Below the pieces are notes generated by a model. That model worked only from the letters and a program-made list of their open reading frames with translations. It had not been told where the DNA came from and made no database searches. Source: a virus. From it: a stretch of DNA of 64,000 nt. Positions 57,366 through 64,000 of this stretch are shown piece by piece. The translations under genes and the position numbers were made by a program. Where the stretch lies: positions 1-64,000 of the IMG/VR virus record IMGVR_UViG_3300029319_007985, one strand, 5' to 3'. Within the stretch, counting starts at the first letter, position 1. Every line of letters starts with the position of its first letter.

Positions 57366-60300
57366 ATGGCAGGTCACACAGAATCTATACAAATATCTTA
57401 CGAACAGTTGTCGCAAGGCAAGTATGTGCGTAATGGTGATGACCTTTCAATTACTACTCATGACCTATGGGGAGAAGCCAAAACGGTTCTGCTCAAAAAC
57501 TATTTTGAAACATCTCCCGACCTCGTCACTTTAAAAGGATCCACTCTCAAAGGCAACATTGTTAACCTCTTGGCTGTAGACAGTCAACCCGATACATCTA
57601 ATGTTGCTTTTGAGGATCCCAATGCCATAGGTAAAATTACAACCGCTGATTTGCCGGTCATAGTACAACGTGCGGACCAATTCATAGAATTACAAAAAGG
57701 CGATCTAATATATCTCAACGATGTGATAGATGCCAAAGACGGCAGTGTGGGTGTTGCATTCAAAGACGACAGTTCAATATCTGTTGACCCCGGTGCCAAA
57801 ATGGTCATAGACGACTTTGTGTATGATCCTGCTGAACCCACAACAGGATCCATGAATGCCAATATTATCACAGGAAACTTTTCTTTCATATCAGGACAGA
57901 TTGCCAAGACTGGCAACGATGCCATGCAGGTCACAACTCCTGTTTTGACCATAGGTGTTAGGGGAACAAATGTGGCAGGTAAAGCCAACCAAGACGGAGA
58001 AGAAAACGAAATAGTTTTACTTCCAAACGAAGACGGCACTGTTGGACAGGTCATGATAACAAACCAATCTGGATCTGTTTTATTGACAGAAGCATTTCAG
58101 GCCACAACCATAGCAACGGCTCTACAACCACCAACTGTGCCTGTGATACTGCCAAAAGAGATTGTGCTTAAAAAGTTTGCGAAAACGATAGCCACAACCA
58201 AAAAGACCAAAAAGTTAAGAGAAACAGAAAAAGAAGCAGAAGAGGCCGCTAAAGAAAAAGTGGAAGCAGAGGAAGAGAAAGAAGAACTGGAAGAAGAAAA
58301 AGAAGAATTAGAAGAAGAAGCCGAGGGGTTGGAAGAAGAGAAAGAACAACTTGAGGAGGAGGCCGAAGCACTGGAAGAAGAAGCGGAAGCACTGGAAGAG
58401 GAAAAAGAGCAGATCGAGGAAGAAGCAGAACTTGTTGAACAAGAAAAAGAACAGGTTGAAGAAAAAGCAGAGGCTCTGGAAGAGAAAGCAGAAGAACTTG
58501 AGAAGAAATTGGAAGAAGTGCCTGTTGAAGAAAAGGAACAGATCGAAAAAGAACTAGAAGCAATCGAAGAAGAGATTCAAGAAGTTGAAGAAATCAAAGA
58601 AGAGATTGACCAGAAGGTCCAAGAAGTAGAAGAAAAAATACAGGAAGTACAGGAAAAAGAACAGATAATAGAAGACAAAGCAGTAGAAATTGAACAGCAA
58701 GTTAAAGAAGTCGAACAACAGGTTCAGATAGTTGAAGAAAAATTTGTGCAAGTTGAACAACAGTTTGTTGAAATTGAAGAAAAAATAATACAGGTAGAAC
58801 AGAAGTTTGAACAGATTGAACAGGACTTCGAGCAGTTCCAACAGGAGTTTGTACAAGAATTTAAAGAATTTATTCCAGAAGAAGAACTACAACAGTTTGT
58901 AAATGAGGCACCAATTGAAATCATTCAAGACGTGCAAGAAATGATCAGAGAAGACATCAAAAACAATCCAGAAATTTTTGATCAAGAACCAGAGGTAATA
59001 GAAGAAGAAATAATTGACGAGGATCCTTTCCAAGAAGTGCCTGAAGAAGATGTAATTCTTCTAGATCCTGAACAGGACTTTGATCAAATGAAAGAAGAGT
59101 TTGAACAATTTGTAGAAGAAAATCCAAATGAAGTTCCTGAAGAAATACAAGATGTTTTTGCTGAGGCAGACAACATGGAAGAGTTTAATGAAGAAATGGA
59201 TGCCTTGATGCAGGACGAAGAGTTCATACAAAAGTTGGAAGAACAAATGCCAGTGCAGGATGAGGTGTTCAATGAAGAACCAGTGATAAAAGAAGAAGAG
59301 CCAATATTGGTTGAAGATGATTTACAAATTGAACAGCAAATCAATTATGATTACAATGAAGATGATCTGTTTATCGCATATGAGGGGCCTATTTTGGAAA
59401 TTGAAGGTCACAACGAACTAATAGAAGACAATAATTTTATTATTGAACTAACTCCTGAGGGAAACAATAATGATGATCTGCAATTACTGGTACAAGACCA
59501 ACAGATCGTGGCCAGTCCACTGGCTATTTCTTCCACTTCAACTGTGTCTATGGCAGAGAACGCCAGCGATGGTGCCACGGTGGCGGACATAGATCACACA
59601 GGAGGAGATGGCACAGTCACATATTCAATAACAGCAGGCAATGGTGAGGGCAAGTTTTCAATCAACAGTTCAACAGGCGTTATCACATACAACACACAGG
59701 CGGCTGTGCTGACTACGGAAACATTTGAAAGCACCACAGAAGGTGCCACACCAACAGGTTGGACAGGGGCAACAGTGGACGCAACAACCTACTACGGAAA
59801 CATATTGGGTAGGTTCAATGGAGATTCAAACACAGGACAGGATGTCTATAAGACATTTGATTTTGACAGTTCCCACGCAGGCAAAAGAGTCCAGATAGAT
59901 TTCAACTTCTGGGAGTTTGGTACGTGGGACGCAGTCAATCACGGATCGCTGGATCAGAGATTCATGGTGTATGTCAACGACACCTTGGTGGTACAGGACT
60001 TGAGAAGATACACAGGCAACAACCAACAGAAGTACGGTGAGACAGTGGGTAACCTTGGCACAGGTTGGACACCATTACCAAAGGAATCTGGAATGGCCAC
60101 CATAAACGGACAACAAGAAGGTGAACTGTACAGACTGTATGGTACCCTGGACGGCAACGGTGACATCAAGTTGGGATTTGGAGCCAGACTGGACGAATCT
60201 CTCAGCAACGAAAGTGCCGCTGTGGACAACATAAAGATTTCACTCACGGATCTTAACTATGAGGATGCCACATCACACACTTTAACAATAACTGCCACTG

Positions 60301-63461: not shown

Positions 63462-64000
63462 ATGACAAGTCTTATTCGACAACTATTTCGAGATAAAACT
63501 GTGGCGGCCATGCTGTTGGTCAGCAGTTTTTTTATTGGTGTATGTGCATTGGCACCTTCGCTATTTGTTATAATAGTTTTAAACAAATTTTTGGCCAGTG
63601 GAGTCACAGCGACTCTAGTAAGTTTGGCATTTGGTGCTGTACTGCTTTTGGCCTTTGAACTGGCATTTAGACAGAACAGATCCACAATGATACAGGAGTT
63701 CAATCAAAAAGTATTTGATCCATTTATTAAAATGGTAAAAGACAGATTGTCCCTAAAACAGATCACAGGTGAACAGTTTAAAAAAGTTCAACAAAATGCC
63801 AATATAATAAAAGCCACAACTTCTCCGGGCATTACAGGTTGGGTCTTGGATTGGCCATTTGTGTTGATGTTTGCTGTGATACTTTTATTAATAAATTGGA
63901 CCGCGGCAGTTATAACAGTAATTTTTATGTTGATCACTTTAGCAGTCAACTTTTATCAAAGTAATCTAAACATCACGAACGACAGTAAAGCAAACTTGGA
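63462..64000 (+). CDS. Type I secretion ABC transporter permease, N-terminal part (truncated by the window)
   Basis: Not in the ORF track: MTSLIRQLFRDKTVAAMLLVSSFFIGVCALAPSLFVIIVLNKFLASGVTATLVSLAFGAVLLLAFELAFRQNR...LDWPFV; matches the HlyB/LapB-type ABC membrane domain pattern. Confidence 0.8.
   Translation, partial: MTSLIRQLFRDKTVAAMLLVSSFFIGVCALAPSLFVIIVLNKFLASGVTATLVSLAFGAVLLLAFELAFRQNRSTMIQEFNQKVFDPFIKMVKDRLSLKQITGEQFKKVQQNANIIKATTSPGITGWVLDWPFVLMFAVILLLINWTAAVITVIFMLITLAVNFYQSNLNITNDSKANL

Follow-up and report, generated by a model that had tools for sequence, protein, structure and literature searches.

A phage-borne module derived from a type I secretion system has lost its ATPase domain and is linked to a CHASE2 adenylate cyclase

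The window analysed here is the first 64 kb (64,000 nucleotides) of the linear, 172,389-base IMG/VR virus record IMGVR_UViG_3300029319_007985, whose CheckV completeness is 47%. At its right end begins a module of a FecR-headed adhesin, a TolC-family channel and a small permease, which continues beyond the window with an HlyD-type adaptor and a CHASE2 class III adenylate cyclase. From the window alone, these genes had been predicted to form a complete type I secretion system (T1SS) under phage promoters. Phage neighbours, bridging contigs and profile matches bear out a locus that is phage-borne and T1SS-derived, but the system is not whole: the permease stops at 248 aa without a nucleotide-binding domain (NBD), the HlyD has 232 aa and no hairpin, and no ABC ATPase was found on the 172-kb contig, which is 47% complete. 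We regard it as virtually certain that the module is a conserved functional reduction under purifying selection. Our best reading of its function, which we put forward tentatively, is that of a late surface-display and signalling module, stripped of its ATP motor and exporting its adhesin through an ATP-free portal. The parts are as follows, with those beyond the window numbered by record position (past 64,000).

57335..57340, plus strand: TAAATA late-type motif, 31 nt ahead of the adhesin start
57366..61781, plus strand: FecR-headed adhesin, 1471 aa, without cysteine, net charge -224
61784..61789, plus strand: TAAATA motif, 19 nt ahead of tolC
61803..63443, plus strand: TolC-family outer-membrane channel, 546 aa, with a signal peptide and two OEP repeats
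63448..63453, plus strand: TAAATA motif, 14 nt ahead of the mini-permease
63462..64208 (past the window edge at 64000), plus strand: mini-permease, 248 aa, an HlyB/PrtD-type membrane domain
record 64192-64890, plus strand: mini-HlyD, 232 aa, with a transmembrane (TM) anchor, lipoyl domain and beta-barrel
record 64985-65239, plus strand: optional small membrane open reading frame (ORF), 84 aa here and 119-131 aa in relatives
record 65236-67074, plus strand: CHASE2 class III adenylate cyclase, 612 aa, four TM segments, closing the operon

The permease that follows TolC from 63462 is LapB/PrtD-like (TIGR03375, E 1.4e-18), in line with its predicted HlyB/LapB type. Alignment to its nearest full-length relatives indicates that it keeps TM1-4 and TM5-6, while the entire NBD is missing and there is no C39-like domain. 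Moreover, all mini forms carry a 56-aa deletion between TM4 and TM5, at coupling helix 2, relative to the 530-570-aa relatives. In type IV exporters this TM4-TM5 loop forms coupling helix 2, which contacts the partner NBD (PMC8277102); with it deleted, borrowing an NBD would be hard. A structural model (pLDDT 70) found its best matches in HlyB (8DCK/7SGR) and PrtD (5L22), with TMq 0.70-0.80. We rejected a frameshift or misassembly as the origin of the permease end, as 128 of 130 complete (redundant) copies have 247-257 aa and an independent contig is identical across both the deletion and the stop. A weak search found no longer, fused forms of the mini-permease. The adaptor is similarly reduced: mini-HlyD aligns only to residues 64-128 and 329-478 of E. 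coli HlyD, has 11 residues between its lipoyl halves where bacterial relatives have an alpha-hairpin of 183-197 residues, and is missing the N-terminal segment that lies in the cytoplasm in full-length HlyD. Inspection past 64000, proposed with the original prediction for finding the remaining components, thus yielded an HlyD but no ABC ATPase. Intermediate phage forms also exist. In L148 (1-8387) and L058, HlyD has an 80-residue hairpin; in the intermediate form of L148 and L063, the permease is NBD-less (257 aa) and the cargo gene is divergent from tolC, and in L063 no TAAATA precedes the permease.

The missing motor might instead be encoded elsewhere, as a free NBD in the half of the phage genome not sequenced here, which would make the system a conventional T1SS in split form. 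Low completeness (47% here and 12-41% for relatives) leaves room for this. However, no T1SS-type NBD is present in phage fragments of 172, 148 and 137 kb, none was found in the flanks of about 135 related loci, and deletion of coupling helix 2 leaves a free NBD without its docking site, so we judge this explanation quite improbable. The sole ABC ATPase in a relative's 137-kb record (G001) is SufC, which adjoins sufB and was rejected as the missing motor.

Absence or breakage of ABC and HlyD components had been named in advance as telling against a secretion machine. The ATPase, coupling helix 2 and the hairpin are indeed deleted, but these deletions are conserved and the genes are under purifying selection, and we therefore view the module as remodelled and not as defunct. 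A widespread family of giant marine phages carries it. Of 831 database relatives of the mini-permease, the best 120 nearly all have 248-249 aa. About 135 fetched loci gave 97 distinct marine gene copies, which fall into 35 clusters at 90% identity. Gene order is nearly invariant, with TolC upstream in 88/88 informative copies, a FecR cargo in 15/15, HlyD downstream in 89/90 and the cyclase in 61/63. The two copies without a cyclase in the next position have a second FecR gene there, in L130 together with a curli module. Values of dN/dS are 0.077 for the permease, 0.062 for HlyD, 0.074 for TolC, 0.082 for the cyclase and 0.079 for FecR. The predicted order of adhesin, TolC and ABC permease stands, whereas the cyclase that follows had been overlooked; its presence adds a signalling role to the proposed function.

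An artefact might be suspected, in the form of a phage contig fused to host DNA or of a pseudo-operon in decay, since the genes are bacterial in type and a bacterial metagenome-assembled genome (MAG) contains two copies. However, contigs assembled from an independent marine run match the record without mismatch at 56783-59023, 62319-63600, 63754-66694 and 66682-68278. Together, such contigs span both flanks, the junction of tolC with the permease, the deleted region and the stop of the permease, and the hlyD and cyclase genes, with 0-1 mismatches overall and continuous depth. A depth spike in X18 was taken as an artefact, as it falls on Glu-rich low-complexity DNA. The neighbours are phage genes, both in the viral loci and on the MAG contigs, and the 97 distinct copies under selection carry a phage motif at fixed spacing. 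We consider an artefact refuted, and with it the chimeric contig that had been raised as a caveat. The two MAG contigs (L054 and L055, in Rickettsiales MED657, G006) are phage DNA of the same family and were rejected as cellular copies on the strength of their neighbours; they reflect either misbinning or a hint to the host.

The wider contig is also of phage character. Its DNA polymerase is nearest to those of the jumbo phages Phosso (49%) and Atu_ph07 (44%) and of the 350-380 kb enterobacterial group, and the contig further encodes NrdA, baseplate-wedge, tail-fibre and PAAR proteins. The check that had been proposed on capsid and terminase genes and on coverage gave continuous depth, as described above, but no match to Gp23 capsid or Terminase_6N profiles on this 47%-complete fragment, where the Gp23 control also matched nowhere; with only half a genome in hand, their absence says little. 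The host is suggested by one further feature.

window 26051-26425: permuted alphaproteobacterial-type tmRNA with a 25-aa tag

This tmRNA points to an alphaproteobacterial host.

The exported cargo had been described as a 1471-aa adhesin without a signal, containing FecR, acidic-stalk, cadherin and RTX parts, and the ORF and profile matches agree with this description.

residues 1-75: optional N-domain
residues 85-271: FecR/retention-plug domain
residues about 280-700: Glu/Gln-rich acidic stalk
thereafter: cadherin with an inserted domain, then a second cadherin at residues 1011-1093
residues about 1095-1355: domain without a name
C-terminus: short, RTX/serralysin-like

The FecR profile matches residues 124-217 at 24.8 bits (cut-off 24). 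The two cadherin stretches score 88 bits and are variable among relatives, and the RTX end matches HemolysinCabind at 32.6 bits with one canonical and one degenerate nonapeptide. For two unassigned cargo domains, all ESM Atlas scores were below 0.9, and they were therefore left unnamed. No hydrophobic signal or TM segment was found in the adhesin, and among 120 cargo homologues none has a signal-like start, 68 have a nonapeptide within the last 250 aa and all are acidic (median -0.17 per residue). Cargo length across relatives ranges over 1.0-1.9 thousand residues; their FecR head is conserved, but their outer half is exchanged freely, the pattern expected of an adhesin.

The N-terminal part of the adhesin resembles known anchoring modules. 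In a model of residues 1-275 (pLDDT 83), the FecR head matches the signalling domain of PupR, which is of FecR type (Z 15.0). Residues 85-180 of the model superpose on the MpIBP anchoring domain 5IX9 with a root-mean-square deviation of 1.3 A over 62 columns at 32% identity; for this match the probability is 1.00 but E is 0.023, with Z 6.5. Given this fold match, the N-terminus may act as a retention module. LapA-type adhesins stay threaded in their own TolC via such a module (bioRxiv 10.1101/198937), and by analogy the phage module probably works like a LapA-type retention system. Retention of the adhesin in TolC is, in our estimate, a good bet. LapA of Pseudomonas fluorescens and MpIBP share with the phage protein a same-fold N-terminal plug, a stalk, cadherin/Ig extenders, an RTX end and a dedicated TolC. 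In contrast, the phage plug has grown into a full FecR domain, the phage proteins have 1.0-1.9 thousand residues, the exporter is motorless, and a CHASE2 adenylate cyclase occupies the place of LapD/LapG. The module's direct neighbour genes have identities other than LapG and LapD, for which no profile search was made. In locus L007 (1701-2762), a gene whose product reads as a periplasmic protease of DegP/HtrA type, and which is preceded by a TAAATA of its own, lies directly before the adhesin; this protease is a candidate release enzyme.

The channel through which the adhesin would be threaded is intact. Its two-repeat TolC core is conserved and gives two OEP matches (E 1.8e-49) and a TIGR01844 match at residues 148-540, confirming the predicted identity. 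Its N-terminus bears an additional arm of about 110 aa, made of a conserved two-Cys mini-domain and a Lys/Glu-rich linker, which was not seen in bacterial TolCs of the related operon. No similar TolC was found in isolated phages among 50,697 records.

The TAAATA motif precedes each of the three window genes, at 57335, 61784 and 63448, as had been noted. Overall it precedes 49 of 218 genes, with 20 expected from shuffled upstream regions, whereas coding DNA is nearly free of it (7 of 2222 windows); its position peaks 10-14 nt ahead of start codons. A TAA[AG]TA lies 14-15 nt ahead of the mini-permease in 34 of the 35 clusters. In the related phages CBB and GAP32, ATAAATA has been predicted to serve as the late promoter (PMC5259590), and this resemblance makes late expression a reasonable inference. 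The module is thus probably late-expressed, which favours the predicted late programme; timing is deduced from the motif. Short contigs from RNA runs cover the adhesin, tolC, hlyD and cyclase, several of them mismatch-free. Expression is not established from these runs because their shares are below 0.1, they were selected via the studied stretch itself and DNA carry-over is possible.

The same motif stands ahead of baseplate and tail-fibre genes, and CBB bears whisker-like appendages (PMC5259590). Both would suit a virion fibre or hair, with the membrane parts assisting its assembly or its release at lysis. This possibility is very improbable: the retention-plug fold, the RTX C-terminus and a bacterial T1SS-cargo ancestry all point to the cell envelope, and the motif also precedes many non-structural genes.

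On sequence comparison, the module is derived from an alphaproteobacterial operon. The bacterial operon consists of TolC, a FecR-headed adhesin, an ABC, HlyD and a CHASE2 cyclase. A related FecR domain occurs in 131 of 401 sampled genomes of MED657's class, the alphaproteobacteria, often in very long ORFs, and in 9 of 16 loci picked for FecR and ABC lying together, a CHASE2 cyclase lies within the 20 kb fetched. The alphaproteobacterial permease matches listed lie in frames of at least 470 aa, with two exceptions (320 and 352 aa), when the MAG's two phage contigs are excluded. In the tree, the mini forms are one clade nested among full-length ABCs, at 99/95 with 15 rows and at 88/58 with all 16; the row concerned, L063, is the most divergent mini form and its placement is weak. 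The nearest cellular ABCs are themselves often degenerate, with the LSGGQ signature kept in 3 of 103 representatives. In four low-GC genomes of 1.4-2.0 Mb, all of which carry the operon (L197, L198, L200 and L209, from G006, G014, G199 and G330), Walker B has changed from DE to DD with loss of the catalytic Glu, and there is no signature and no H-loop His. A second, 720-aa ABC is also degenerate in G006 and G330; both ABCs were examined in these two genomes and the short one in G014 and G199. From these sequences, the loss seems to have begun in cells and to have reached its end point in the phage form. Separately, L201 (7709-10756, G093) encodes a 1015-aa fusion of an ABC membrane domain, a dead NBD and HlyD beside a FecR/RTX protein, and L210 has a similar ORF of 1056 aa.

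How could such an exporter work? The mini-permease and mini-HlyD, whose anatomy is described above, may form an inner-membrane portal unable to couple to an ATPase. Export of the unfolded, very acidic adhesin would begin at its C-terminus, with the membrane potential as the driving force, and its RTX and cadherin domains, folding with Ca2+ once in seawater, would block back-sliding. The adhesin would then stay threaded in the phage TolC, plugged there by its N-terminal FecR domain in the manner of LapA and MpIBP. More speculatively, the two-Cys arm of TolC may replace the lost HlyD hairpin. Surface display of the adhesin is the likeliest output of the module. We rank ATP-free export first because the docking loop is gone, the nearest cellular motors are degenerate, the cargo is acidic and a hairpin-less adaptor has a precedent; export without any ATPase nonetheless remains a tentative proposal. 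T1SSs favour anionic cargo (PMC9223453), and the driving force of chain passage in them is still debated (PMC5018854). The precedent is Borrelia BesA (BesABC; PMC3807786, PDB 4KKS), which the mini-HlyD search matched and in which a loop of about nine residues replaces the hairpin and the adaptor works with a TolC-like channel.

Several points weigh against this proposal. ATP hydrolysis is essential for HlyA export, which is not paced by Ca2+ (PMC5018854). Loss of the HlyD hairpin leaves no evident sealed tunnel across the periplasm, and an ungated portal risks an ion leak. The BesA precedent is part of an RND pump and not of a protein exporter; its partner BesB is a small-molecule pump with a large periplasmic domain, and the mini-permease has neither feature. 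All phage records are less than 50% complete, so that an unlinked ATPase may exist, and the same operon is intact in some alphaproteobacteria, where a host exporter may be available. On the signalling side, no cNMP-binding protein, as a target for cyclic AMP (cAMP), was found in five phage fragments.

The main rival takes up the host exporter: an intact T1SS of the host would export the phage adhesin, the phage TolC would retain it, and the mini-permease and mini-HlyD would enter the host complex as non-catalytic scaffold or specificity subunits. Alphaproteobacteria commonly carry the operon with complete ABC and HlyD genes, among them the MAG G006, which holds two of the phage contigs, and the permuted tmRNA of the phage is alphaproteobacterial. 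The HlyB-HlyD complex contains three dimers and six adaptors, with room for passive subunits (PMC11026475), and the need for ATP hydrolysis in the HlyA system also speaks for a host motor. However, the ABCs examined in small low-GC genomes look catalytically disabled too, every phage lineage retains all three channel parts, and the cytoplasmic N-terminal segment is missing from mini-HlyD. We consider host-powered export unlikely.

Alternatively, the mini subunits may conduct no protein at all, and serve either as a scaffold for FecR-CHASE2 signalling or as dominant-negative poisons of a host T1SS that, for example, shed host adhesins or phage receptors. Energy coupling and the tunnel-forming hairpin are both lost, just as would be expected of an inhibitor or a scaffold, and the cyclase is tightly linked. 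Against this, no cargo homologue has a Sec signal and the T1SS-type C-terminus is kept, which together call for some T1SS-like route, and an inhibitor needs neither its own TolC nor a hypervariable adhesin. We find this alternative improbable. Returning to ATP-free export, its strongest form would be a self-sufficient T1SS descendant in which the membrane potential alone exports a highly acidic, plugged adhesin via the NBD-less permease, the hairpin-less adaptor and the arm-bearing TolC, and the FecR plug is the ligand of the CHASE2 cyclase, making the module a phage-built contact sensor; in this complete form we think it rather unlikely.

The signalling arm rests on the linkage of the cyclase to the module. 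The cyclase matches CHASE2 and cyclase-domain profiles at 143 and 89 bits, and it keeps the catalytic and ATP-specifying residues D437, K479, D483, D551, N560 and R564, whose roles are established for class III cyclases. The periplasmic FecR head would regulate the cyclase, so that the state of the adhesin would set cAMP in the infected cell. We think FecR-to-cyclase signalling somewhat probable. A predicted complex of the FecR head and the CHASE2 domain scored 0.00, which was counted neither for nor against binding. In most loci the cyclase is followed by a pair of small membrane genes of about 93 and 80 aa (for example L007:13381-13910), which are absent from the present locus.

Other genes of the window and of related loci lie outside the module. 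AlgH and DUF6647 are its conserved left neighbours, and ClpX, Hsp20, ClpS and AlgH/YqgE homologues lie at window positions 41863-44353 and 56268-56846. Further envelope transport cargo comprises two TctA tricarboxylate transporter genes (4593-6029 and 30798-32138) and a PstS-like binding protein (53242-54195), and a class II cobalamin riboswitch lies ahead of a TonB-dependent receptor gene (47330-49262). SufB is present without SufC in the window (35232-36665), while relative G001 (L056:810-3783) has sufB, a sufE-like gene and sufC together. A 419-aa ORF in two related loci (L002:13489-14748 and L146:3116-4384) reads like cytochrome b.

Compared with known systems, the module shares with T1SSs (HlyBD-TolC, PrtDEF and LapBCE) a two-repeat TolC, the type IV ABC membrane fold, the lipoyl and beta-barrel domains of HlyD and a signal-less, acidic RTX cargo. 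It differs in having no NBD, coupling helix 2, C39-like domain, HlyD hairpin or HlyD cytoplasmic segment, in the extra two-Cys arm of its TolC, and in being phage-encoded. Because three defining T1SS features fail, we do not file it as a T1SS. No paper on a phage T1SS was found in open-access text.

The closest known system is the pelagiphage curli (type VIII secretion) module, composed of CsgF, CsgG, CsgA/B, FecR and an adenylate cyclase (Wittmers et al. 2022, PMC9599517), in a paper that mentions neither TolC nor T1SS. Both are phage-borne, of alphaproteobacterial origin, and combine an outer-membrane pore with FecR and an adenylate cyclase. In the present module, however, the pore is TolC and not CsgG, FecR is fused to the exported adhesin without a signal peptide, and inner-membrane T1SS remnants are present. 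No CsgG was found on the present, 47%-complete contig, while one lies beside the module in L018, where the T1SS-derived and curli modules adjoin, each with its own CHASE2 cyclase. Curli-type modules with CsgF, CsgG, a curlin-like protein and a signal-bearing FecR with an acidic stalk directly follow the T1SS-derived module in L018 (3848-10533), L029 (683-7394) and L130 (3227-7729); L018 has two CHASE2 cyclases and L029 one.

Partnerships of CHASE2 cyclases with surface proteins are also found in bacteria. NsrA, an outer-membrane protein of Sinorhizobium meliloti, contains a FecR domain. The S. meliloti CHASE2 cyclases CyaD1, CyaD2 and CyaK are activated via NsrA (PMC13001267), and in Campylobacterota, CHASE2 cyclase and FecR genes cluster (PMC9239204). 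The phage module resembles these in clustering FecR and CHASE2 genes and in the passage of a surface signal to the cyclase via an outer-membrane partner. It differs from them in being carried by a phage and in that the FecR partner is a T1SS cargo, proposed to be threaded through TolC.

A conserved and abundant version of a T1SS without ATPase, coupling helix or hairpin offers a minimal system for asking what the motor does, and the module provides a candidate partner for CHASE2 sensor domains. Seen beside the published curli module, it suggests a recurrent strategy in which marine phages equip infected cells with units of pore, FecR and cyclase that remodel the cell surface and the cAMP level. 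Such remodelling may bear on aggregation, superinfection exclusion and lysis timing.

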